This document shows positions 4,984 through 22,726 of a stretch of DNA of 22,726 nt, piece after piece. The stretch is from Candidatus Electronema aureum (GTDB lineage: Bacteria; Desulfobacterota; Desulfobulbia; Desulfobulbales; Desulfobulbaceae). Location: NCBI GenBank assembly GCA_004284765.1, contig NQJD01000039.1, positions 1-22,726 on the forward strand, in the 5' to 3' direction. A program made the translations under genes and the position numbers. Numbering within the stretch: position 1 is the first letter of the stretch; each line of letters begins with the position of its first letter. Below the pieces are notes generated by a model. The model was not told the DNA's origin and ran no database searches. It saw only the letters and a program-made list of their open reading frames with translations.

Positions 4984-5856
4984 ATGCTATTAGGTGGTTT
5001 TTCCATTAAAATAATGGATGACAGTAATATTCCATGCAAGCAACATCACTTGGTAGATGTTTTTTCATGTCCCGTTAAAAAGAAAAATGTTCTTTGTCAG
5101 GCTATAGAGCTTTCGCTTAAGGAGCTGATGCAAATCAACTTTCCTGCCAGCGAGAGGAATATATTATATGCAGACTGTAGGGTGACTCTCTGTAGAACAG
5201 AAACAGATTCATTCAGGCTTTTATGCCTGAATGAATCTGGAAATGACACATTGTGGAATCTAAATTTTGATTCAAATTTTTCTCAATTTGAATACGGCCT
5301 TTCCCACGAAGCAATAGAACAGGGCGACCTTATTCAATTAGCTTTTAATCGGTTTCTTCTTCAGCATACCTTCATCAATCACCACGGCCTGATCATTCAC
5401 GCCGCAGGTGGTTCTATTCACGGCAAGGGCATGGTCTTTCCCGCCGTCTCCGGCACTGGCAAATCAACACTCAGCCATCTGCTGCTGCCGCATCCTGAAA
5501 ATCAGCTTTTCAGCGAAGAGCGGATCATCATGCGCCGGACGGATGACGGTTGGCATTTGTGGGGCACTCCGTGGAAAGGAACCGGCGTGATCGCCCGCAA
5601 TGAATCAGCACCGCTGAATGCCTTAGTTTTTCTCAGTCAGGCCCCGGAAACAAAAATCTCAAAACTGCCGCCCTCCGCCGCCCTCCGCCGTCTGCTGGAG
5701 ACGGTCTCCATTCCTTGGTACAGTCAAGAGTGGACCGACAAGGGCCTATCCGTCTGCGAATCCCTGCTGCGCGACATTCCTGTATTTGAGCTGGCATTCC
5801 GTCCTGATCAAACTGCGGTGCAAGCCGTGGCTGATTTAGCTGCTTCATTAGACTGA
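4984..5856 (+). CDS. HPr kinase/phosphorylase C-terminal-domain-like P-loop protein (putative peptide Ser kinase).
   Basis: HAAGGSIHGKGMVFPAVSGTGKSTLSHLL resembles the HprK P-loop region (G-x-S-G-x-G-K-S). The ORF-track start (GTG 4882) would overlap the precursor-2 gene. The first ATG after that gene's stop is 4984, but the true start is uncertain. Confidence 0.7.
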   Translation: MLLGGFSIKIMDDSNIPCKQHHLVDVFSCPVKKKNVLCQAIELSLKELMQINFPASERNILYADCRVTLCRTETDSFRLLCLNESGNDTLWNLNFDSNFSQFEYGLSHEAIEQGDLIQLAFNRFLLQHTFINHHGLIIHAAGGSIHGKGMVFPAVSGTGKSTLSHLLLPHPENQLFSEERIIMRRTDDGWHLWGTPWKGTGVIARNESAPLNALVFLSQAPETKISKLPPSAALRRLLETVSIPWYSQEWTDKGLSVCESLLRDIPVFELAFRPDQTAVQAVADLAASLD

Positions 5857-5873
5857 GCGAGCATTCGAGGTCG

Positions 5874-6356
5874 ATGAGCCACTCGGTTATCGGTATTCGC
5901 GAACCCGGCGCATTAGATTTAGTGCAGTCCCTACTTCGGCAGGGTTTTAGTGTTCACATCCGAGTTTCTGGTGACTCCATGAAGCCGCTGCTTCGGGGTG
6001 GTGAGCTTGTTGAAGTGGCACCTTTAAGAGATGCCCGTCCCAAACTTGGCGATATTCTTTTTGTCCGCAGTCGTCAAAACACTCCGCTTGTCCATCGCTT
6101 AATTTGGCGACGTAACCAAAACGGCATTTCTCACCTATTGACCAAGGGTGATGCCTGTGCAGGTTTTGACGGTTTTATTCCTGCGAACAAGGTGATAGGC
6201 CGCGTTGATCGGATTATAATTGCCGATCAAAAATCAATCAGCCTGCAAGTACCGCTGATGCGGCTACGAGCTGTTTTGTCTGTCAGCCGTGTTTTACTTG
6301 CTCATGCTTGGCGCAAATTGAACGCCTATAAAAAAGAATACCCGCCGAGTATATAA
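5874..6356 (+). CDS. S24/S26-family serine peptidase (signal-peptidase-I/LexA-like fold). It is a putative leader peptidase.
   Basis: SGDSMKPLLRGGELVEV matches the catalytic-Ser motif G-x-S-M-x-P of S24/S26 peptidases. A downstream LLTKGDA supplies a candidate general-base Lys. SD gagg lies at 5867-5870. The gene is 17 nt after the preceding gene. Confidence 0.7.
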   Translation: MSHSVIGIREPGALDLVQSLLRQGFSVHIRVSGDSMKPLLRGGELVEVAPLRDARPKLGDILFVRSRQNTPLVHRLIWRRNQNGISHLLTKGDACAGFDGFIPANKVIGRVDRIIIADQKSISLQVPLMRLRAVLSVSRVLLAHAWRKLNAYKKEYPPSI

Positions 6357-6361
6357 CTTCC

Positions 6362-6391
6362 TTGCAATTTTTGCATGTTCTGTCTTATCAT
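6362..6391 (+). promoter_or_regulatory. Sigma70-like promoter candidate for the gene at 6434.
   Basis: ttgcaa (6362-6367), an 18-nt spacer, then tatcat (6386-6391). It lies in the AT-rich gap between the peptidase stop and ATG 6434. This is pattern only. Confidence 0.3.
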
Positions 6392-6433
6392 AGAATCTAT
6401 GAAAAATATTTTAACTCTCACGGAAAAACAAAC

Positions 6434-7825
6434 ATGAAAAATCAAGCTGAATGCCACTTTTCTTGGCTTGTAGCCATTCTGTTCGCTGCGCTTTCCATTT
6501 TTCATCCTCTGACGGTGAAAGCGCAGGTGTCGTCCGGTACCATAACAGGCACCGTGACGACTGTAGATACAGTTCCTCTGGCAAGTCTGGCGGTGGGTGT
6601 GTACCGTGCTGATGATGAAAGTACTCGGCTGAAAGCCGTACGGACAAACACTGCGGGTATTTTTACGCTGACGGGTCTGCCAGCGGGTAATTATAAAATA
6701 AAATTCTTCACTACTGGTATTAATTATGTCGGAGGATGGTATAAGCAAAATACTTCCCCTCCAGCCTCAGCGGTAGCCACATTTGGCGAAGGTAATATCA
6801 TTACGCTGACCTCAACAGCCGGAGCTGATGTAGGGGAGACACGACTTGATCTCGGTTTGCAGATCAAAGGAAAAGTGAATGATACCTCCTCGCCAAGTAA
6901 TCCTATTGCTGGAGTCTATGTTCAGGCATATCGCAACGGAGTTTGGGAAAGAACTTCTGATGCTGCCACCATCATTGCTGATGGCTCATACATCATTAGC
7001 GGCCTGAGAGCAGGTGACTACACCATACGTTTTTGGGCGTATCAAACCAGCTATACTACGGAATGGTATTCTTCAACTACTCCAACAAACACTGTTCCTG
7101 ATGCTACCAGTGCTGCTTCTGTGGCGGCAGGGAGTATTAACATAAACGCCCAGCTATCTACAGGCGGTAACATTCTTGGCACGGTTTACGATAAGACAGG
7201 GACGGTACCTGTTGTCGGCGCATTAGTGACTGTTTATGATAATGTATCTCCTTACACGTTTAGAGGCTTCACCACCACGTTAGCAACAGGCACATACACA
7301 GTGCGAGGTCTTCCTCTTACAGGAAATTATCTTGTCCAGTTTTATGAAAAATATGTCAATAACGTGGGGACGGGCCTAACTGAATGGTACAACGATAAGT
7401 CTGATAGGGCCAGTGCAGCGGCTGATTTTGGCAGTGTTGTTGTCATTAACCAAGCAACAGGATACATCGACAATATTAATGCTACGCTTGATCGTGGACC
7501 TATTTCTGGCAAGGTCACCTACAAGACAGGCTCGCCTGTCGTAGGCATGTTGATTAGTGTATATGACAGCAATCAAGTTTTGAAACTATCTACAACCACC
7601 GATACCAAAGGACAGTATATCACTGGGGAACTGCCCGCAGGAACTTATAAAGTGCAGTTTGGTACTGCCAGTTGGTATAATGGAAAAGATAATTTTAACG
7701 AGGCTAATGCAGTGCAGGCGGGAGCTGCTGGAATCAATGCTATCATAGAACAGCCGACACTCCTCTTCCATGTCTACAATATCCTCCTTATGAAAAAACA
7801 TTGCACGGCAGCTGATTGCCAATAA
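6434..7825 (+). CDS. Secreted protein with four carboxypeptidase-regulatory-like / Cna-B-like beta-sandwich repeats.
   Basis: The start at ATG 6434 gives a signal-peptide-like N-terminus (MKNQAECHFSWLVAILFAALSIFHPLTVKAQV). There are four ~100-aa repeats of the type G(T/K)V...G.PV.GA.V.VY......T...G.Y...GLPAG.Y.V.F....Y..EWY. The longer ORF-track start (6362) lacks any support. Confidence 0.7.
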   Translation: MKNQAECHFSWLVAILFAALSIFHPLTVKAQVSSGTITGTVTTVDTVPLASLAVGVYRADDESTRLKAVRTNTAGIFTLTGLPAGNYKIKFFTTGINYVGGWYKQNTSPPASAVATFGEGNIITLTSTAGADVGETRLDLGLQIKGKVNDTSSPSNPIAGVYVQAYRNGVWERTSDAATIIADGSYIISGLRAGDYTIRFWAYQTSYTTEWYSSTTPTNTVPDATSAASVAAGSININAQLSTGGNILGTVYDKTGTVPVVGALVTVYDNVSPYTFRGFTTTLATGTYTVRGLPLTGNYLVQFYEKYVNNVGTGLTEWYNDKSDRASAAADFGSVVVINQATGYIDNINATLDRGPISGKVTYKTGSPVVGMLISVYDSNQVLKLSTTTDTKGQYITGELPAGTYKVQFGTASWYNGKDNFNEANAVQAGAAGINAIIEQPTLLFHVYNILLMKKHCTAADCQ

Positions 7826-14803: not shown

Positions 14804-15925
14804 ATGGAAAATATTATGAGCCTTACAGAGCAGATCAATAAAAACTCAGCAACGGTAAAGACACAATCGTATTCAATGTCGCTGGGTGAAATGGCTGCGA
14901 TGTACCAAGCCGGTGAACTCGAACTGCACCCAGAATTTCAGCGTTTCTTTCGCTGGACACCTGAACAGAAGTCGCGGCTTATTGAGTCGATCCTGCTTGG
15001 CATTCCTGTGCCGCCCGTATTTGTGGCAGAAAGAAGGTTGGATGCAAAATGGGATGTGATTGACGGGCTGCAACGGCTTTCAACGATATTAGAACTCATG
15101 GGTGAACTTCAAGGAGAAGATGGCAACAAGAAAGAACCGTTGCAGCTCACGCGAACACATTATCTGCCTGATTTGGAGGGAATGTACTGGTCTCATGAAG
15201 ATGAAAGTAAATGCCTTCCAGAGTTTGCTCAGATAAAGATAAAACGTGCTCGTATTGATGTCAATATCGTCAGCAGTACAAGCGATGAGGTGGTGAAATA
15301 CGAAGTTTTTCAACGTTTGAACACAGGAGGCGCAAAGGCGACTGACCAAGAGGTGCGCAATTGTCTTCTTGTAATGATTAATAACAGCTACTTCAACTGG
15401 ATGAAAGGTCTAAGTGAAAATGAATCGTTTCAGAACACTCTCTCGCTGACGGATCGTGCGCTCGCTGAGGCTTTCGACATGGAACTTGTAGCTCGATATC
15501 TCGTCATGATTCAAAAAGAACCAGACAAACTCAAGAAAATCGATGAACTTGGAACGTATTTGAATGAGGAATGTATAGCGCAAGCGAAAGATTCAGCATT
15601 AGACAGGGATGCGATTGCAAAGAGCTTTTTTGAAACATTCACATTCCTTGCGAATGAGCTGAAAGAAAACGCTTTCCGCAGGTTTGATATGAAACGGCAG
15701 TGCTATAGCGGCCCGATGCTTGTTTCAATTTTTGAGGTTGTCGCTGTGGGATTGGGGCATCGGTTGTTGAATGGGGGAGCACTTCCTGACCAAGCCTCTT
15801 TTGCGGAAAAACATCGCTCGTTGTGGGACGAGCTTGGAAAAACATCATTTGTCGGATCGGGTGTGCGTTCCTCAACTCGGATACAAGAGACAATTCGCTT
15901 TGGGCGGGAGTGGATTGCACGGTGA
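14804..15925 (+). CDS. DUF262 (ParB/GmrSD N-terminal-like) domain protein without a DUF1524 nuclease domain.
   Basis: LHPEFQRFFRWTPEQKSRLIESILLGIPVPPVFVAE...WDVIDGLQRLSTILE matches the DUF262 signature (FQR..vW ... DGQQRLTT). VFQRLNTGGAKATDQEVRNCLL is also present. I see no H-x-x-P His-Me finger C-terminal domain. Confidence 0.85.
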   Translation: MENIMSLTEQINKNSATVKTQSYSMSLGEMAAMYQAGELELHPEFQRFFRWTPEQKSRLIESILLGIPVPPVFVAERRLDAKWDVIDGLQRLSTILELMGELQGEDGNKKEPLQLTRTHYLPDLEGMYWSHEDESKCLPEFAQIKIKRARIDVNIVSSTSDEVVKYEVFQRLNTGGAKATDQEVRNCLLVMINNSYFNWMKGLSENESFQNTLSLTDRALAEAFDMELVARYLVMIQKEPDKLKKIDELGTYLNEECIAQAKDSALDRDAIAKSFFETFTFLANELKENAFRRFDMKRQCYSGPMLVSIFEVVAVGLGHRLLNGGALPDQASFAEKHRSLWDELGKTSFVGSGVRSSTRIQETIRFGREWIAR

Positions 15926-16572
15926 AGATTCGAGCCGCACAGGAACTCATTAATTTCCTTAGCGAGAGAAAACAAAATCGTAAAAGGGAGCTGATATCGC
16001 TCTCGCAGGATTTATCGCCGCCAAAGGGCCATCCGACGGCGCATACATGCAAGGCCGCTGTCGTTCTTGCCTATGCTCACTGGGAAGGATTTGTGAAAGA
16101 GGCAGCTCAAGCCTATGTTAATCTTGTGGCCCATAAATCTAAAAGATTAGACGCATTGGCTCTCAGTTTCCAAGCTCTGGTGTTCCGTCAAGAACTACTT
16201 GCAGCCCAATCTGCAACCCGTCGGATACAACAGCATCTGTCCCTTACAAAACGTTTCACTGACGATATCACGTCAAGCTGCAAAATTGATCATGACAGAG
16301 CAATAGACACAGAATCGAATCTTAACGCTGAGGTCTTTGAAAACATCTGTCTATCTGTTGGACTGGACTATCAAACTTACTGGGCTGTGCACGGGCATCG
16401 AATGGATGATCTTGTAGCAAACCGTTGCGCAATCGCACACGGTGAAATGTCGACACCTGAAGATAAATATGCCAGAGAAGCAGTAAATTTCGTTATTAAG
16501 GCTATAGACCAATTCTCAACCGATATCGAAAACGCTGCCACGCTTGAGCAGTATCTCAGGAAAACGAGCTGA
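15922..16572 (+). CDS. HEPN-domain protein (RiboL-PSP / MAE_28990-like family), a putative RNase effector.
   Basis: The start GTG 15922 overlaps the DUF262 stop (gGTGA, 4-nt coupling). The protein is helical and carries the R-x4-H motif in VANRCAIAHGE near the C-terminus. Size (216 aa) and DUF262 adjacency fit that family as I recall it. The ORF-track start at 15823 is an in-gene overlap and is unlikely. Confidence 0.65.
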   Translation: MKIRAAQELINFLSERKQNRKRELISLSQDLSPPKGHPTAHTCKAAVVLAYAHWEGFVKEAAQAYVNLVAHKSKRLDALALSFQALVFRQELLAAQSATRRIQQHLSLTKRFTDDITSSCKIDHDRAIDTESNLNAEVFENICLSVGLDYQTYWAVHGHRMDDLVANRCAIAHGEMSTPEDKYAREAVNFVIKAIDQFSTDIENAATLEQYLRKTS

Positions 16573-16659
16573 ATTACGAGGATTATCATTGAGGAAGGCG
16601 AAGGCAGATTGGGGCTTGGCTGTTGGCCAAACTCCGCTTTCAATTCGCGGGCTGGAACA

Positions 16660-16896
16660 ATGAGAATCGCGCAAGTCACACCAAAGGAAAATGGATTGCT
16701 TCACATTGTTGCCGAAGACGGACGCAATGGTGTTTTTGATGTGCGGCCATATTTGAATTCTGAGGCGTTCAGGCCGCTGCAAGACTGGCATGAATTTTCC
16801 TGTATCATCAACGGCAGCTATTTTATTGAGTGGAAATGCGGAGCTGATCTGTCAGCAGACACCATTGAAGCTAAATGGCAAATATATGCCGCTTGA
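16660..16896 (+). CDS. DUF2442-family small protein.
   Basis: MRIAQVTPKENGLLHIVAEDGRNGVFDVRPYLNSEAF...FIEWKCGADLSADTI fits the ~80-aa DUF2442 pattern (v..v.p..d..L.v.f.dG....d......). ATG 16660 is preferred over the 16609 start. Confidence 0.6.
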   Translation: MRIAQVTPKENGLLHIVAEDGRNGVFDVRPYLNSEAFRPLQDWHEFSCIINGSYFIEWKCGADLSADTIEAKWQIYAA

Positions 16897-16905
16897 TTTG
16901 ATTGC

Positions 16906-17312
16906 GCTGCGGCAGCCGTCGGACAGATAAGCCATCCATCGTTCAGGCAGGCCGCGCAGTATTTCCTGCGCCTCGATGCAAACTTGCTGCATGGCGTTTC
17001 AGGCTTGGGATGCGGCATCTGCTGGACAGGCAAAGCAGCCGTATTGCAAATAAACCGCTTGAAATTTTCGCATCTCATGGTAAAAATGATGTGCGGCATT
17101 TCAAATATGCGACGCGGCAGCCGTCGTTCAGGCAGCTTATCTGTCTGACAGACGGGCCGCCGAAATTTCAGCGCAGCGGCGCAAACTTGCTTCAGGGCAT
17201 TCTCAGTTTGCAGCGCGGCATCTGTCGTTCCGATGCGCCGCCGGTCTTTCGGGCCAGCCGCCTGAAGCGCAGGTGCCGCGCCGCAACGCTGAACTGCCGC
17301 ATCTGACTATCC
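16906..17312. repeat. Diverged tandem duplication (2 units of ~203-205 bp) in a GC-rich non-coding spacer. It contains a 15-bp inverted repeat.
   Basis: Three anchors recur at a constant offset: gcggcagccgtcg (16909 and 17114), gcaaacttgct (16978 and 17181) and gcggcatctg (17012 and 17215). gtcggacagataagc (16918-16932) is the reverse complement (14 of 15) of gcttatctgtctgac (17135-17149). Confidence 0.75.
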
Positions 17313-17338
17313 CATCTTAACCGCAGAAGGAGCGCAGC

Positions 17339-17962
17339 ATGGCGACATTTCCTGTCCGCGAGGCGGACATCATGGCACTGGCGCAAAGCATCATCGCCGG
17401 GATGACGGAAAATCCAGATTATCCTTCGCCGCCGCTTTCGCCAACAGAGCTACGCGCCCGGCTGGATGCGTTCAGCGGATCAAGCGACGCGCAGGCATCG
17501 GCCCAGTCTGCGGCGCAGCAGGCCACGGAAACCAAGCGCACGGATTTGGAAGAGCTGATTGCGGGCATGAAGGCCGCCATGCTGCATTATGCCGAAGACG
17601 CGGTGCGCGGCAATGATGCCAAGCTGGCCGCTCTGGGCTGGAGCGGTCGCGCGCCCCGCACGCCGCATGTGCCGCAGCTGCCCGGCCAGCCGCGCAATGT
17701 CAGGGCGCAGCAGCAGGGCGAGGGCAGCATGACGCTGGCGTGGGATGAGGCTGAGAACGGCGACGCTGCTGCCTGTTACAAGGCCGAACGCCGCAGCCTG
17801 AACAACGGCGTGTGGAGCGCATGGCAGATCGTCGGCACAGCGGTCAGCACGAGCATCGCGCTGTCCGGCCAGCCGCGCGGCAACACGCTGGAATACCGCA
17901 TCATCGCCATCAACAACGCGGGCGAAAGCCTGCCGAGCAACACCGCGACGGCAGTGCTGTGA
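17339..17962 (+). CDS. Paralog P2: full-length helical N-domain plus a C-terminal fibronectin type III-like domain.
   Basis: The N-terminus FPVREADIMALAQSIIAGMTENPDYPSPPLSPTELRARLDAF is homologous to P1 and P3. The C-terminus PGQPRNVRAQQQGEGSMTLAWDEAENGDAAACYKAERRS...LEYRIIAINNAGESLPSN is a typical FN3 pattern. SD gaaggag lies upstream. Composition is GC-rich. Confidence 0.8.
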   Translation: MATFPVREADIMALAQSIIAGMTENPDYPSPPLSPTELRARLDAFSGSSDAQASAQSAAQQATETKRTDLEELIAGMKAAMLHYAEDAVRGNDAKLAALGWSGRAPRTPHVPQLPGQPRNVRAQQQGEGSMTLAWDEAENGDAAACYKAERRSLNNGVWSAWQIVGTAVSTSIALSGQPRGNTLEYRIIAINNAGESLPSNTATAVL

Positions 17963-18028
17963 ATTTTTGTGAATTTTTTCCGGCAGAAAAATTTGCAGTC
18001 GAATTATCTGCCCCCTTCTTTTTCGCAG

Positions 18029-18075
18029 AGCACGTGTGCTTTTGCATCTCAAACACACGTGTTTTCATTTTTTAA
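18029..18075 (+). terminator. Hairpin plus T-rich tail between P2 and the methyltransferase gene. It is a terminator or an operator.
   Basis: cacgtgtg (18031-18038) pairs with cacacgtg (18054-18061). The loop is cttttgcatctcaaa, followed by ttttcatttttt. Each arm contains the palindrome CACGTG. It lies inside the unsupported N-terminal extension of ORF 17969. Confidence 0.5.
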
Positions 18076-18088
18076 TTCATCGAGTATT

Positions 18089-18955
18089 ATGCCTTCCTGT
18101 TTAAACCCCATTGAAACATCTGATTCAACTATAAACAATCTCGATGAAAAAAGATGGAGCGTTTACAACGGAGATGCAGTTCAAGTTTTAAAAACTCTTC
18201 CAGATAATTCATATAATTGCATAGTCACTTCTCCGCCGTATTACTGGCTTCGAGATTATGGAACAGATGAGCAAATCGGAAAAGAAGATACTGTAGAGCA
18301 ATACATTTTTTCTGTATGCGCTGTTTTTGATGAAATTTATAGAGTAATGAAAGATGATGGATTAGTTTTTATCAATCTTGGCGACACCTATTATTCAGGA
18401 AAAGGACAATCTCATGGCGTTGACAAAAAGAGCAGAAAAAGACGCTTTGGCTTAAGAGCTGTTGATAAAAGCGGAGGGCTTGATATCGGGATTAAACCAA
18501 AATCATTGATAGGTATTCCTTGGAGAGTCGCTTTGGAAATGATGAAGCGAAATTGGACACTTCGGAGTTCAATTATTTGGTATCGTAAATATTCGCTTCC
18601 AGAATCGGTGAAGGATCGCCCGAAAAGAAGTTACGAACATATATTTATGTTCGTAAAAAATCGTAAATATTATTTTAATCAAAGTGCATTTGGTGCCGAT
18701 GAGCAAGGAGATGTGTGGACAATTGTTCCCCGGCCAAAATCGGCGCACTTGGGAACAGCACCGTATCCCGATGAGCTTGTGCAGCGATGTCTTGATATGG
18801 GTTGTCCGCCTGGCGGTTCGGTTTTAGATCCGTTCGCGGGCAGCGGCACAACCTTGCGTGTTGCTGTGCAGTCCGGTCGTTTTGCCACAGGGATTGATAA
18901 CAATCCAGAATTTTGTCAATTTATGTCTAGTGAATTGCAAAGGATTTCAAAATGA
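18089..18955 (+). CDS. DNA methyltransferase, beta-class N4-cytosine/N6-adenine (N6_N4_Mtase family).
   Basis: Motif IV is IVTSPPYY near the N-terminus, and motif I is VLDPFAGSGTT near the C-terminus. That is the circular permutation of beta-class amino-MTases. The start is taken at ATG 18089. The stop overlaps the next gene's ATG (ATGA at 18952-18955). Confidence 0.9.
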   Translation: MPSCLNPIETSDSTINNLDEKRWSVYNGDAVQVLKTLPDNSYNCIVTSPPYYWLRDYGTDEQIGKEDTVEQYIFSVCAVFDEIYRVMKDDGLVFINLGDTYYSGKGQSHGVDKKSRKRRFGLRAVDKSGGLDIGIKPKSLIGIPWRVALEMMKRNWTLRSSIIWYRKYSLPESVKDRPKRSYEHIFMFVKNRKYYFNQSAFGADEQGDVWTIVPRPKSAHLGTAPYPDELVQRCLDMGCPPGGSVLDPFAGSGTTLRVAVQSGRFATGIDNNPEFCQFMSSELQRISK

Positions 18956-20865
18956 AATCAATATATTTCAGTCAAGACATAATCCACCAGTCTTTGTCAA
19001 AATTAGAAAAAATCAATCCATTTTATGGCATCTGTTTTCTTGTCTTCAAGCAAGGGAATCTTCCTGTCGGTGAAGCCGTTAATTTTCCTGCTGATCGCAA
19101 CGATGATGAATTCCTGAAAAAATATTACCATCCAGACCAGCAGTCTAATCATTTTTTCAGAGTGTTCCGTGGGGCGGATAAAAAAAAGTATTGGCTGAGT
19201 CCTGATTATGCCTCAAGCGGACTTCAAGCTGTCAGAACGCAAACCTTCCGAGACACATTGCTGCATGAATCCGGCAGCACGCAATGGGGATGGAAAGACA
19301 ATTATTTAGCGGTACTGAAAGAAAAACCAAAAAAGCAATTATTGCCAGCTTTTTATATGGCTGTCTGGCTTTATCGTGAAGAGCCTTGGCAAGAAAATAG
19401 CACCTGCGAGGAAGTTGTCAGAAAGTTTTTTAGTGATTTCAATATTAACGAAAATGAACAAGGAGAACTTTTTGATGCTTCCGTCCCGCAGAATGTGCAG
19501 GACTGTTTTGCTGATGAACTTTTCTCGTGGCCGAAGTTAGTCAACGCACTTGGGATTCCAGACCCTCCAGATTCCCCGCCTGAAGAAGGGGCGATACTAT
19601 CTTCTTTGTCACTACAAGAAGTAGGGCCGGCTCATAGCCTTCAAATCAATTTAGCTGAGAGGGTGAATTTATTTACCGGCGACAATGGACTTGGAAAAAG
19701 TTTTCTGCTGGAGATTGCCTATTGGACAATAAGCGGCATCTGGCCAGGTTTTCAGGCGTATCCAAGGACAAATGCGGCTGAATCTGCCATCTCTTTCAAT
19801 CTGCTTGGACCATCTGGCAAAATTAAGGAGCACACATCAACGTATGACTGGACAAGGCAGCATTGGCAGCATAAAAAATCAATAAGGGCGGGCTTGCTGG
19901 TGTATGGCAGGGCAGATGGTGCTTTTGCTGTTTGGGATCCGGCAAAGGATTGTTGGCCGGACTCTGAAAAGAAAAAAATAATTTTTTCCAGGGAAGAGAT
20001 ATGGGAAGGTCTTCAAGATAAAACTGGTGGCAAGACAAGTTATGTGGCCAATGGATTAATTGCTGATTGGGTTCATTGGCAAAACAGTCCAGATAAAAGT
20101 GCCTTTGAAATCTTGCGAAATGTTTTGAAACGACTTTCTCCGCCTGATTTGACACGGGGAGACTTAGGGATTTTGGAACCCGGCCAGCCGGTCAGAATTT
20201 CGGGCGACAGCCGATGGATGCCCACCATAAAGCATCCGTATGGTGAAACACCATTAGCATATGCCTCTGCGGGTGTTCGCCGGATTGTTGCCTTGGCATA
20301 TATAATCGTTTGGGCCTGGCTGGAACACAAAGAACAATCAAAGTTGATGCACAGAAATCCGCAGAAAAGCATGATGATTCTCGTGGATGAAATCGAAGCG
20401 CATCTGCATCCAAAATGGCAGCGCAGAATTTTGCCTTCCCTGCTGGAGGTTCAGAAGGATTTGTCTTCCGAAGAGCTTCGGGTGCAATTGTTAGCCGTCA
20501 CGCATTCGCCGCTGGTCATGGCTTCCGCCGAGCCGTTTTTTGATTCTGAAAAGGATGCTTGGTTTGATCTTGATCTTGTTGAGAACGGCGATGATCAAGA
20601 TCACCTCGTGGCTTTAAGCAGACGGCCCCTACTCCGGCGGGGCGATGCCTCAAGCTGGCTGACCAGCGAGGCATTTGATATGGCCAGCGCACGGTCAGCG
20701 GAAGCGGAGCAAGTTCTTGAAGATGCGGCCATAGCCTTGAGCGACGAATCCTTTACTGCTGCTCAGGCAGGAAAGCTCGACGCAGAGCTGAGAAAGGTCT
20801 TGGGCGACACAGACCCGTTCTGGATGCGCTGGCGGTTCATTGCCGAGAAAAAAGGATGGCTTTGA
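18952..20865 (+). CDS. ABC/AAA_21-type ATPase (PtuA/Septu-like) with an uncharacterised ~200-aa N-terminal domain.
   Basis: Walker A is LFTGDNGLGKSFLLE (from nt 19678). Walker B is MMILVDEIEAHLHPKWQ, and the H-loop region is LLAVTHSPLV. The N-terminal 200 aa match nothing I recognise. A Pro-rich linker, PDPPDSPPEEG, separates the domains. Confidence 0.85.
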   Translation: MKSIYFSQDIIHQSLSKLEKINPFYGICFLVFKQGNLPVGEAVNFPADRNDDEFLKKYYHPDQQSNHFFRVFRGADKKKYWLSPDYASSGLQAVRTQTFRDTLLHESGSTQWGWKDNYLAVLKEKPKKQLLPAFYMAVWLYREEPWQENSTCEEVVRKFFSDFNINENEQGELFDASVPQNVQDCFADELFSWPKLVNALGIPDPPDSPPEEGAILSSLSLQEVGPAHSLQINLAERVNLFTGDNGLGKSFLLEIAYWTISGIWPGFQAYPRTNAAESAISFNLLGPSGKIKEHTSTYDWTRQHWQHKKSIRAGLLVYGRADGAFAVWDPAKDCWPDSEKKKIIFSREEIWEGLQDKTGGKTSYVANGLIADWVHWQNSPDKSAFEILRNVLKRLSPPDLTRGDLGILEPGQPVRISGDSRWMPTIKHPYGETPLAYASAGVRRIVALAYIIVWAWLEHKEQSKLMHRNPQKSMMILVDEIEAHLHPKWQRRILPSLLEVQKDLSSEELRVQLLAVTHSPLVMASAEPFFDSEKDAWFDLDLVENGDDQDHLVALSRRPLLRRGDASSWLTSEAFDMASARSAEAEQVLEDAAIALSDESFTAAQAGKLDAELRKVLGDTDPFWMRWRFIAEKKGWL

Positions 20866-21465
20866 ATGATTCCTGTGCTTGAACAGTCTGAACCGGCAGA
20901 CTTTGATGCGAAGGTGCGGCAGAAAGGGCTGGCGTTTCTGCGTAAGAAAGGCATCGCGCTGGATCAGCCTCTTCCGGACAAGGCTGATATTGCCCCGTAT
21001 TGGCGTGACTGTCTTGATGATTTGCATTCACTGTATCATGGCTGCTGCGCTTATCTCGCCATTTTCATCGAGCGTGTCACTGGAGACGCATCTGTTGATC
21101 ATTTCATAGCCAAATCTAAACAGGCTGATCTTGCGTATGAATGGAGCAATTATCGTCTTGCCTGCCTGACGATGAACAGCCGCAAGCGGAACTATGATGA
21201 TGTTCTTGATCCGTTCTCTGTCCAATCTGGCTGGTTTCATCTTGAATTAGTCAGCGGACGCATTTATCCGAATTCTAATTTGCCATCGAACACAAAGAAG
21301 CAGATAGAAGAAACGATCGAACGCCTGCATTTGGATGACGCAGGAAACAGAGAAATACGGTCTCGCCATTATTATGAATATGCTGCAAAAGGATACCCGA
21401 CTGACTATCTCAAAACAAGATCGCCATTTGTTTATACAGAAGCACTGCGGCAAGGTCTTTTGTAA
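20866..21465 (+). CDS. TIGR02646/PtuB-like HNH-type nuclease homolog with a degenerate zinc-cysteine set.
   Basis: The ATG immediately follows the ATPase stop (tgaATG). CCAYLAIFIERVTGDASVDHFIAKSKQADLAYEWSNYRLACLTMNSRKRNYD follows the family pattern C.YCE...(D/I)H..P......W.N...AC..CN..K. However, the second Cys of each pair is replaced (CAYL, CLTM). Confidence 0.65.
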   Translation: MIPVLEQSEPADFDAKVRQKGLAFLRKKGIALDQPLPDKADIAPYWRDCLDDLHSLYHGCCAYLAIFIERVTGDASVDHFIAKSKQADLAYEWSNYRLACLTMNSRKRNYDDVLDPFSVQSGWFHLELVSGRIYPNSNLPSNTKKQIEETIERLHLDDAGNREIRSRHYYEYAAKGYPTDYLKTRSPFVYTEALRQGLL

Positions 21466-21546
21466 CTACATATCAACACCGTGACGGTGGTGCTGTGACA
21501 GGGCAATAAAGGCAGTGAATTTTATTTACCGCAAGGAGGATGCGCC

Positions 21547-21816
21547 ATGGAATTCCCGACCAGCGAGGCGGAAATCATCGCCTTGGCCGAAAAAATGATC
21601 GCCGGGCTGACCGATAACCCGAATTTCCCTTCGCCGCCGGTTTCAGCAGCCGAGCTGCGCAAGATGCTGGATAAGTTCATCGCTCTAAGAAACGCGGAGA
21701 CTGCTGCGGAAATTGCGGAGATACAGTCCACAGCCGCCGCAGAAAAGGCCCTGAATGAGCTGTTTGATGCTACGGAGAAAAGCGCGACACCGACACGGCC
21801 AGTTCAATGGAATTGA
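21547..21816 (+). CDS. Paralog P3: short helical protein homologous to P1 and to the P2 N-domain.
   Basis: MEFPTSEAEIIALAEKMIAGLTDNPNFPSPPVSAAELRKMLDKFIALRNAE. It shares an 18-nt identical stretch, ccggtttcagcagccgag, with P1. SD aaggagg lies upstream. Confidence 0.6.
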   Translation: MEFPTSEAEIIALAEKMIAGLTDNPNFPSPPVSAAELRKMLDKFIALRNAETAAEIAEIQSTAAAEKALNELFDATEKSATPTRPVQWN

Positions 21817-21875
21817 TGCTCACAAATAGAACTGCCTCTGCGCACAGCGGCTGCACCAAGCATGTGTGCGATGTA

Positions 21876-21897
21876 GGGGCGAAAGATTTTTCGCCCC
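21876..21897 (+). terminator. Perfect 9-bp GC-rich hairpin. It is either a terminator of P3 or a REP-like target hairpin at the IS border.
   Basis: ggggcgaaa (21876-21884) pairs with tttcgcccc (21889-21897). The loop is gatt, followed by ttgtatta. Confidence 0.5.
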
Positions 21898-21900
21898 TTG

Positions 21901-22103
21901 TATTATGAGATTGGGATGGATTAGCATAATCCATCTTTATGGAAGGAGAGTCGGATGCCGTTTCGCCCCTTGGACCCAAGAGTTCGCGACGTAGATAATG
22001 CACCGGCATCTCCTGTTTTTCCTGCTGGAACTTGGACAGTATCAATGGCCCGACTGAGTCGGAAGCCCGCATCCACAAGGTTAAGTTTGCAGGAGGTTTT
22101 ATC
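21901..22103 (+). ncRNA. Candidate IS110-type bridge RNA / structured left non-coding end of the IS.
   Basis: About 200 nt of non-coding sequence lie directly upstream of an IS110-group recombinase gene. It contains stem-loops gatggatta-gca-taatccatc (21915-21935) and ccgac-tga-gtcgg (22049-22061). An internal 12-mer, tttcgccccttg (21961-21972), is identical to the flank at 21889-21900. Boundaries and existence are inferred only. Confidence 0.3.
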
Positions 22104-22726
22104 ATGAGTGTCAGTCAGATGCGCATCCTCGGAATCGACGTTGCAAAGGCCAAGTTAGACATCGCTCTGCTGCTCCCGGACGGAAAATTCAGAAGCGAGG
22201 TCATTGCCAACACGCCGGAAGGCTTTGAAAAACTGGCCGCATTTCTCGCGGAAAAGGGCCATGCCGTGAGCGTGGTCAATCCGGCCCAGATCAGCGCGTT
22301 CGGCTCCGCAGCCCTGAGCCGCACCAAAACTGATAAAAAAGATGCCCGACTCATCGCCCGTTTCTGCGCCGAGCGGAGGCCGCCGCTCTGGGAGCCGTCT
22401 CCGCCTGTTCCTGCGGAACTCCGATCCCTTGTCATACGCCGCGACGCGCTGGAGCGCATGAGGACGCAGGAGATGAACAGGCTGCATGTCGCCCGCGCTG
22501 AAGTCCAGCAGAGCGTCGAACGCCATGTCGCGTATCTTGAGCGGGAGATCAAGGAGATCGACTCGGAAATTCAGAGAAAAACCGACGGCGATGCCAGCCT
22601 GAAAAAGCAGCGGGTGCTGCTGGACAGCGTCCCCGGTCTCGGAGCCAAGACCATCCCTGTTCTGCTCTCTTTCTTCAGCGGAAAACGCTTCCGCAGCTCC
22701 CGGCAGGCGGCGGCTTACGCAGGGCT
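22104..22726 (+). CDS. IS110-family (DEDD) transposase/recombinase. It is 3'-truncated by the window edge and apparently carries an internal in-frame deletion.
   Basis: It is not in the ORF track because it has no stop within the window. ATG 22104 has SD aggagg at 22091-22096. Translation: MSVSQMRILGIDVAKAKLDIALLLPDGKF...VSVVNPAQISAF...SRTKTDKKDARLIARFC...LDSVPGLGAKT. It has the GIDVAK and KTDxxDA motifs of the IS110 RuvC-like domain and the PG(I/L)G motif of the Tnp domain. The segment that normally carries the E-A-T-G motif is missing. Confidence 0.9.
   Translation, partial: MSVSQMRILGIDVAKAKLDIALLLPDGKFRSEVIANTPEGFEKLAAFLAEKGHAVSVVNPAQISAFGSAALSRTKTDKKDARLIARFCAERRPPLWEPSPPVPAELRSLVIRRDALERMRTQEMNRLHVARAEVQQSVERHVAYLEREIKEIDSEIQRKTDGDASLKKQRVLLDSVPGLGAKTIPVLLSFFSGKRFRSSRQAAAYAG

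Follow-up and report, generated by a model that had tools for sequence, protein, structure and literature searches.

A methyltransferase-PtuA-PtuB operon of Candidatus Electronema aureum that looks like a restriction-modification-type version of Septu

Septu is among the commonest defense systems, and the basis on which it discriminates between phage and host DNA is unclear. In a stretch of 22,726 nucleotides (nt) from Candidatus Electronema aureum (contig NQJD01000039.1; the whole stretch is called the window below), positions 18089-21465 carry three coupled genes that encode a DNA methyltransferase (MTase), the ATPase PtuA and the HNH nuclease PtuB. We lean toward regarding these three genes as one defense system, a restriction-modification (R-M)-type variant of Septu, in which a long form of PtuA with an additional N-terminal domain (NTD) is paired with the MTase encoded directly upstream. 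An earlier note, made from the letters of the window alone, had proposed a Septu-like system with a modification module at this place, and its description of the locus was accurate: all three plus-strand open reading frames are present, with stop/start coupling through ATGA at 18952-18955 and TGAATG at 20863-20868. The genes and the parts of PtuA referred to throughout are as follows.

18089-18955, plus strand: MTase gene, 288 amino acids (aa), beta-class DNA methyltransferase, predicted N4-cytosine type
18952-20865, plus strand: ptuA, 637 aa, PtuA
18952-19596, plus strand: NTD of PtuA, ~215 aa, tryptophan-rich, putative DNA-specificity or reader module
19597-20466, plus strand: ABC/OLD-type ATPase core of PtuA, residues ~216-505; Walker A, GDNGLGKS; Walker B, ILVDEIEAHLHP
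20467-20865, plus strand: C-terminal part of PtuA, with the H-loop, a breakpoint (~residues 500-530) and the PtuB-binding C-terminal domain (CTD, residues ~520-637)
20866-21465, plus strand: ptuB, 199 aa, PtuB HNH nuclease

Linkage of the methyltransferase to long PtuA

Nineteen homologues of the 637-aa PtuA were aligned, and 80 genomic loci were fetched. Long PtuA, covering residues 1-635, was encoded in 61 of the loci, 3 of which were cut by a contig end upstream, leaving 58 that could be assessed. Short PtuA, the canonical Septu form of ~430 aa that is equivalent to residues 211-637 of the window protein, was encoded in 19. An orthologous MTase (37-75% identical) lay directly upstream of long PtuA in 47 of the 58 assessable loci, in every case on the strand of ptuA and in most cases overlapping it or within ~30 nt of it, whereas none of the 19 short PtuA genes had an MTase next to it (Fisher p = 1e-10). 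The hosts belong to ~20 phyla, among them Chloroflexota, Cyanobacteria, Acidobacteriota, several classes of Proteobacteria, Bacillota, Verrucomicrobiota, Planctomycetota, Bacteroidota and Spirochaetota, and they include an archaeon, Methanosarcina. The survey of PtuA/PtuB homologues for linked MTases that the earlier note had called for divides the long forms from the short ones, and the note's statement that canonical Septu has no methyltransferase agrees with the short-form loci.

The linkage was also seen in the reverse direction. When an alignment of the MTase was used to scan metagenome contigs, and relatives of at least ~54% identity were considered, 38 loci had enough sequence 3' of the MTase to be assessed, and in 37 of these a long PtuA came directly after it. 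Among the viral contigs of IMG/VR, the MTase was kept with two of three long PtuA forms, and collections of plasmids and phages yielded short PtuAs or nothing, with no annotated long form. With the MTase linked at this frequency in both the genome and the metagenome loci, chance adjacency is excluded, as is the case of an unlinked orphan MTase, which the earlier note had named among the observations that would speak against its proposal.

The identification of the ATPase and the HNH protein as the two components of Septu, made in the earlier note, was borne out by full-length matches of both proteins to PADLOC models, PtuA to PDLC00270 (7e-207, end to end) and PtuB to PDLC00348 (2e-73). The ATPase core also matches AAA_21 (PF13304), AAA_15 (PF13175) and AAA_23, both Walker motifs are present as first read and occupy invariant columns of the family (GDNGLGK and DE), and the PtuA profile matches solved PtuA chains of Septu and of retrons. 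In PtuB the core DHF...K...N.R...N..K...DPF is conserved, with invariant residues. The description of this protein as TIGR02646-like holds as far as the match itself is concerned (1.7e-12), but its score of 47.6 bits is just below the cut-off of 52.15.

The MTase matches PF01555 (N6_N4_Mtase) at 1e-41 and, from end to end, the MTase_II model of PADLOC, PDLC03387, at 1e-83. Motif IV, SPPY at residues 48-51, precedes motif I, DPFAGSGTT near the C-terminus, and the protein has the motif order of the beta class, in which a motif IV of the form SPP[YF] comes before a motif I of the form FxGxG. The 47 orthologues retain every catalytic motif, and SPPY or SPPF is present in each of them. In beta-class amino-MTases, an SPPY or SPPF motif IV is a signature of N4-cytosine enzymes, and the nearest relatives with solved structures include chains deposited as cytosine-N4 MTases. 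These features point to an enzyme that probably makes N4-methylcytosine and not the N6-adenine modification, so that of the earlier assignment to a beta-class N4-cytosine or N6-adenine MTase the class stands, and the adenine side is the less likely one.

The N-terminal domain of PtuA and the exchangeable blocks of the system

The presence of the MTase follows that of the NTD, and short PtuAs are without both. The NTD has no match among Pfam or PHROG families, and PDLC00270 is the sole PADLOC model that covers it (positions 1-212). An AlphaFold2 (AF2) model of the domain has a pLDDT of 93 and a pTM of 0.89; its best Foldseek matches were winged-helix proteins and the FokI recognition domain, with E-values of at least 0.5, and we assign no fold to it. 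Six aromatic residues (W81, W112, W114, W139, W146 and Y118) are invariant, and the NTD is otherwise the most variable segment of the triad, with a mean pairwise identity of 35%, which is what a specificity module would be expected to show.

When 1.84 billion cluster representatives were searched exhaustively with a profile, 283 members of the NTD family were returned, in two architectures. The majority had the NTD joined to the ABC ATPase, i.e., long PtuA, together with truncated fragments of it, and in the others the NTD was joined to an AAA_5 domain of the McrB-like type. An apparent third architecture, represented by mid-length matches of 390-470 aa, was rejected since these proved to be PtuAs truncated by contig ends. 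A member of the second architecture, P0159, is an orthologue of R1.LlaJI. Over residues 1-203 it shares 35% identity with the NTD of the window (E = 3e-47), and over residues 230-584 it shares 54% with R1.LlaJI of pNP40 (E = 3e-123), with no similarity between the N-terminal halves of P0159 and R1.LlaJI. The Lactococcus plasmid pNP40 encodes R1.LlaJI beside the LlaJI nuclease and a pair of MTases. The DNA that LlaJI restricts is unmethylated, and its specificity is provided by R1 alone, whose N-terminal half is unique (PMC1459862). In the McrB family at large, the N-terminus is occupied by DNA-binding modules that can be interchanged and have no structural relationship to one another (PMC7680126; PMC12707154). 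Because of this literature and the architecture of P0159, the NTD appears to occupy the DNA-reader slot of a bona fide R-M motor, and it is probably a DNA-specificity or DNA-reading domain. This homology, a feature that the earlier note had not remarked on, lends independent support to the proposed R-M-like logic of the triad.

The McrB-like members are also found near relatives of the MTase. In one locus (L126), an NTD-bearing McrB-like gene lies ~1.5 kb upstream of an MTase and on the same strand, a McrC-like gene separating the two, and in another (L124), such a gene is convergent with an MTase ~1.6 kb away; the two MTases are 51-53% identical to that of the window. More distant relatives of the MTase, at 45-51% identity, have pairs of McrB-like and McrC-like genes directly 3', and the first ~60 residues of these McrB-like proteins match the NTD profile with an hhalign probability of 66%. 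When the NTD of the L124 McrB-like protein was used as query in a word-indexed search, a single fragment came back, which was uninformative. In mirror-tree comparisons, the partial correlation between MTase and NTD, given the core, was only 0.19-0.22, which is too weak to tell DNA reading from docking of the MTase.

Two further loci were recorded in the course of this survey. At positions 631-3380 of L099, an MTase 58% identical to that of the window is followed by a 631-aa fusion of GmrSD_N and HNH, and not by PtuAB; no NTD was detected in this fusion, which may be a third type of effector paired with this MTase family. In L124, a 523-aa protein is encoded at 5342-6913, between the MTase and the convergent NTD-AAA_5 gene, and it has no Pfam or PADLOC match.

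The copy of the triad in the window is a natural chimera, as judged from the identity of its PtuA to long-form and short-form PtuAs in sliding windows. The breakpoint falls at PtuA residues ~500-530 (nt ~20450-20540). On its 5' side the protein is closest to long forms, with 70-85% identity to that of L001, and beyond residue ~520 it is 53-70% identical to the short PtuAs of two-gene Septu, compared with 26-47% to long forms; over the whole CTD, identity to the window does not exceed 46% in any of 120 long homologues. The window PtuB shares 69% identity with its counterpart in a two-gene Septu of Desulfobulbus and 37% with the triad PtuB of another cable bacterium, Candidatus Electrothrix sp. 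YB6. GC content climbs across the same point, from 0.37-0.43 in the 5' half of the cassette to 0.47-0.55 in its 3' part, with 0.59-0.65 just upstream of the cassette. The AT-richness that the earlier note had seen in the cassette holds for its 5' half. By these comparisons, the PtuA CTD and PtuB of the window derive from a two-gene Septu lineage.

Across 44 triads, the CTD varies together with PtuB (partial r = 0.51), the MTase, the NTD and the core likewise vary together, and the breakpoint of the chimera coincides exactly with the border between these two co-varying blocks. The coincidence of breakpoint and co-variation indicates that MTase, NTD and core on one side, and CTD and PtuB on the other, are exchangeable. 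The junction of the two blocks is the interface at which PtuB docks, and in Retron-Eco7 the PtuA CTD contacts PtuB (PMC12673091). The complete long-type triad of Candidatus Electrothrix sp. YB6 (CP178758.1; L224 4155-7546) lies at an unrelated locus, between genes for DnaJ-domain and hemerythrin proteins, which shows that related cable bacteria carry the triad as a mobile unit.

Proposed mechanism, known systems and competing explanations

In the mechanism that we propose, the MTase would methylate a short motif of the host DNA, probably to N4-methylcytosine, and so mark it as self. The NTD of long PtuA would act as a DNA-specificity module, in the manner of the N-terminal domain of R1.LlaJI or McrB, and engage DNA that is unmarked. 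The ABC-type ATPase of PtuA would assemble with PtuB through the CTD, and the HNH nuclease of PtuB would cut the foreign DNA, as expected from homology to characterized Septu. Bound ATP probably restrains the nuclease in healthy cells, as it is reported to do in canonical Septu, which is described as an ATP-gated, ATP-inhibited DNase without a methylation component (PMC12673091), and such restraint would explain why the MTase can in some cases be lost without killing the cell. Two exchangeable blocks make up the system, MTase, NTD and ATPase core in the first, CTD and PtuB in the second, and in the window the second has been swapped for that of a local two-gene Septu.

Septu type I, reported by Doron in 2018, consists of a PtuA ABC/OLD-like ATPase and a PtuB HNH nuclease, with structures under 8EE4-8EEA. 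The triad is like it in the full-length matches of PtuA and PtuB to the Septu models, in the position of ptuB directly 3' of ptuA at the TGAATG junction, and in its CTD and PtuB block, which is 53-71% identical to the two-gene counterparts. It differs in its coupled m4C-type MTase and in the 215-aa NTD, neither of which accompanies any of the 19 short PtuAs, and a two-gene, modification-free definition does not describe it. In the PADLOC check that the earlier note had suggested, PtuA and PtuB score as Septu, and since the long form falls within the reach of PDLC00270 as it stands, the pair would be called plain Septu (type I) by current tools and the MTase reported separately. The variant is thus hidden in the databases and not absent from them. 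Full-text searching, with most subscription journals outside its reach, found no description of an MTase-PtuA-PtuB system, and selective reading of the PADLOC paper, a 2025 review of R-M systems and a census of McrBC turned up none; that census notes only that MTase-associated McrBC systems await publication. The triad therefore looks like an undescribed R-M-type version of Septu, although an earlier description is possible.

In the logic of its operon, the triad resembles the LlaJI R-M system, which likewise combines MTase, an NTPase with an N-terminal specificity domain (a putative one in the triad) and a separate nuclease. The NTD of the window, a putative DNA binder linked to this MTase family, has its homologue in the N-terminal domain of R1.LlaJI orthologues such as P0159, and relatives of the window MTase adjoin McrB/McrC-like pairs. 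However, the motor of the triad is an ABC-type ATPase and that of LlaJI an AAA+ GTPase (AAA_5), the nuclease of the triad is of the HNH type and that of LlaJI a McrC-like PD-(D/E)XK enzyme, and the single beta-class amino-MTase of the triad contrasts with the two m5C MTases of LlaJI. AAA_5/McrC pairs were found only beside more distant MTase relatives and not in the window. Since motor and nuclease come from different superfamilies, the triad is not a member of the LlaJI group.

Septu type II, or retron I-A, likewise places a third gene, for a sensor or regulator, upstream of a PtuAB effector, and in retrons the PtuA N-terminus is the interface with that module (PMC8565338; PMC12673091). The upstream gene of the triad, however, encodes a PF01555 MTase, whereas that of the retron is a reverse transcriptase (RT) accompanied by the msr/msd non-coding RNA (ncRNA), and by length alone the 63-residue NTD of retron PtuA differs from the 215-aa NTD found here. 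This class was rejected because the window has no RT and no Rfam match; a scan with Rfam gave no family at gathering score, hence no retron ncRNA. The Hma system, made up of the HmaA helicase, the DUF1156 MTase HmaB and the HmaC ATPase, is often found beside Septu (PMC8565338), and it is like the triad in that a methyltransferase belongs to a system co-localizing with Septu. It is a separate three-gene unit, whereas here the MTase is translationally coupled to ptuA, belongs to PF01555 and not DUF1156, and is unaccompanied by the helicase and DUF499 genes of Hma. Type I and Type III R-M were rejected as well, there being no HsdR/HsdS and no SF2-helicase Res with Mod in the operon or its flanks. 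Among the matches listed, the best 25 for each protein, no PglX/BrxC, DrmABC, other mad, or HmaA/HmaC models appeared, which removed BREX, DISARM, MADS and Hma from consideration; the MTase has a weak match to PADLOC mad2 (3e-16, compared with 1e-83 for MTase_II). The earlier note had allowed that the triad might turn out to be a classified R-M system or a named defense subtype, and the defining parts of Type I and Type III R-M, BREX, DISARM, MADS, Hma and retron I-A are all absent.

Several observations weigh against an R-M-type system. A cyanobacterial clade (L005, L009-L011, L013, L014 and L016) has long PtuA and PtuB without an adjacent MTase, and in the six of these loci that were examined (L005, L010, L011, L013, L014 and L016) both Walker motifs (A and B), the H-loop, the HNH motif and the NTD tryptophans are intact. 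In L010 (5703-5946) and L005 (5864-5959), an intact ptuA-ptuB is immediately preceded by what is left of a degraded MTase gene, from which it follows that the gene was lost secondarily in this clade. Such a loss should be intolerable to a simple R-M system, except where the host is protected by ATP gating or by an MTase acting in trans. Either a trans-acting MTase serves these loci, or ATP gating silences their PtuAB, or the MTase is a regulator and not a protector; the maintenance of intact PtuA and PtuB weakens the expectation, implied in the earlier note, that the pair would be toxic without the MTase. The MTase is also the best-conserved segment of the triad, with a mean pairwise identity of 54% and a near-invariant basic insert, and such conservation is unusual because R-M systems normally diversify their specificity. 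A Foldseek search with the NTD model against PDB and BFVD gave nothing significant (best E-value 0.5), and thus no known DNA-binding fold. Finally, the PtuAB of Retron-Eco7 cleaves tRNA-Tyr, so that PtuAB effectors are not all directed at DNA (PMC12673091).

Some of these points would be accommodated if the MTase were a regulatory partner, instead of or besides marking self, that is held by the NTD and keeps PtuAB latent, an arrangement that we consider unlikely. The nuclease would then be freed, leading to abortive infection, when a phage interferes with the MTase through anti-restriction proteins or depletion of S-adenosylmethionine. Precedents are provided by type I-A retrons, in which RT-msDNA restrains PtuAB, and by the EcoprrI R-M system, which restrains PrrC. 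Upstream add-on sensors are established for PtuAB, Septu type II being RT plus PtuAB (PMC8565338), and the PtuA N-terminus of Retron-Eco7 contacts its upstream sensor, RT-msDNA (PMC12673091). Conservation of the MTase that is unusual for an enzyme with diversifying specificity, the tolerance of its loss in cyanobacteria, and the first ~60 NTD residues, which are common to every protein encoded 3' of this MTase family in the manner of a docking element, also fit such a role. What argues for the R-M-type system over a restrained nuclease is that the NTD takes the place of a known DNA-binding domain in R1.LlaJI orthologues, LlaJI being a true R-M system, that the MTase catalytic motifs are present in 47 of 47 orthologues, hence catalysis is under selection, and that the NTD is conserved even in loci with no MTase to dock. 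Docking of the MTase onto the NTD could have another purpose, resembling Type III enzymes, if the MTase were to supply both sequence recognition and methylation sensing to a PtuAB motor-nuclease. The strict co-occurrence of NTD and MTase in two unrelated NTPase contexts would suit this, and so would a conserved DNA-contact insert in the MTase beside a variable NTD, but long PtuAB without an MTase would lose its targeting and yet is maintained in the seven cyanobacterial loci, and the N-terminal position of McrB-family proteins binds DNA directly in every characterized case (PMC7680126; PMC12707154). We rate this possibility as rather unlikely, and below the regulatory role, but regard both as live competitors of the R-M-type system.

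It is very improbable that the NTD reads methylated bases, as in a Type IV system, with the MTase of the operon serving another purpose. The many invariant tryptophan and tyrosine residues could build an aromatic cage, McrB N-terminal domains often read modified bases (PMC7680126), and the association of McrBC with MTases has been called surprising for a Type IV system (PMC11090510). But a nuclease that attacked what the MTase translated together with it produces would kill its own cell, and LlaJI, the nearest characterized relative of the motor, cuts unmethylated DNA (PMC1459862). That an orphan or Type II MTase merely stands beside an ordinary two-gene Septu is effectively refuted. Defense genes do cluster, and the islet around the triad also holds GmrSD_N and HEPN genes and an IS110 element, but adjacency, strand and overlap are kept in 47 loci from genomes, 37 from metagenomes and 2 from viral contigs, across ~20 phyla, and the MTase, which never accompanies short PtuA, co-varies with the NTD and core of PtuA.

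With slightly less confidence than in the R-M-type variant itself, we extend the proposal to a widespread and hitherto unrecognized R-M class, in which a portable pair of an m4C-type MTase and a new DNA-reading domain would provide the discrimination of self from non-self and could be plugged onto unrelated motor-nucleases, mostly the ABC ATPase and HNH nuclease of Septu and in other cases AAA+ McrB/McrC-like enzymes, with the nuclease-docking block of PtuA CTD and PtuB being exchangeable in its turn, as seen in the chimera of the window.

Genomic setting of the cassette and implications

Three further features lie at the borders of the cassette, all on the plus strand.

17938-17962, plus strand: 25-nt direct repeat, left copy, in the 3' end of an fn3 gene (repeat search)
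~18030-18076, plus strand: terminator-like hairpin, stem GCACGUGUG...CACACGUGU, then a U-run (RNA fold)
21474-21498, plus strand: 25-nt direct repeat, right copy (22/25 identical), directly after the PtuB stop codon (repeat search)

The hairpin, which the earlier note had placed ahead of the cassette as a hairpin or terminator and which does have a terminator-like fold followed by a U-run, lies between the stop codon of the upstream fn3 gene and the ATG of the MTase; the RNA fold of 17940-18090 has an energy of -39.4 kcal/mol (z = -2.8 relative to shuffled sequences). A GTG at 17969 is formally possible as an alternative start of the MTase, but translation from it would cross the hairpin, and homologues and public annotation support the ATG at 18089. 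Public gene calls on an identical chromosome (OW818638.1, a cable-bacterium metagenome-assembled genome) comprise the identical three genes. A scan for sigma-70 promoters and terminators found nothing decisive for the operon, and a tRNA scan of the window was empty.

The pair of 25-nt repeats brackets a cassette of 3.5 kb. The fn3-domain gene occupies 17339-17962, and a truncated paralogue of its N-terminus lies 3' of the cassette, at 21547-21816, which points to a tandem pair of fn3 genes that either took up an insertion or recombined internally. The cassette is part of an islet of ~8.8 kb (window 14804-22726; L225 1865-10046) that sits between pgk and tpiA and splits an otherwise conserved gap-pgk-tpiA-secG cluster. 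It comprises GmrSD_N/NsnA-like and HEPN genes, a DUF2442 gene, the fn3 gene, the triad, the fn3 fragment and an IS110 transposase. The GmrSD_N (DUF262) protein (14804-15925) matches PADLOC NsnA at 5.5e-58 and is followed by a HEPN protein of the RiboL-PSP/MAE_28990 type (~15954-16572) that matches no PADLOC model; the two are probably a separate two-gene defense module. The transposase gene (22104-22726; DEDD_Tnp_IS110 and Transposase_20), of the IS110 family, is directly downstream of the islet and is cut off by the window end. The non-coding region 16900-17300, which separates the DUF2442 gene from the fn3 gene, contains many short direct repeats at spacings of ~100-200 nt as well as inverted repeats (e.g., 16918-16932 with 17135-17149, 93% complementary), and has no Rfam match.

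If the R-M-type reading of the triad is correct, the same PtuAB effector can run in a methylation-discriminating mode, and does so in a large natural clade, and an ABC-ATPase/HNH architecture would join the catalogue of R-M enzymes. Combined with ATP gating, such a system would be a two-key immune nuclease, needing both an unmarked target and the state of an infected cell before it acts. The NTD would be a new DNA-specificity domain, common to a Septu variant and to enzymes of the McrB/LlaJI type, and the family would offer a clear case of modular exchange between defense systems. Annotation of such loci as plain Septu with a stray Type II MTase makes the variant invisible in censuses of defense systems and leads to its MTases being counted as orphans.

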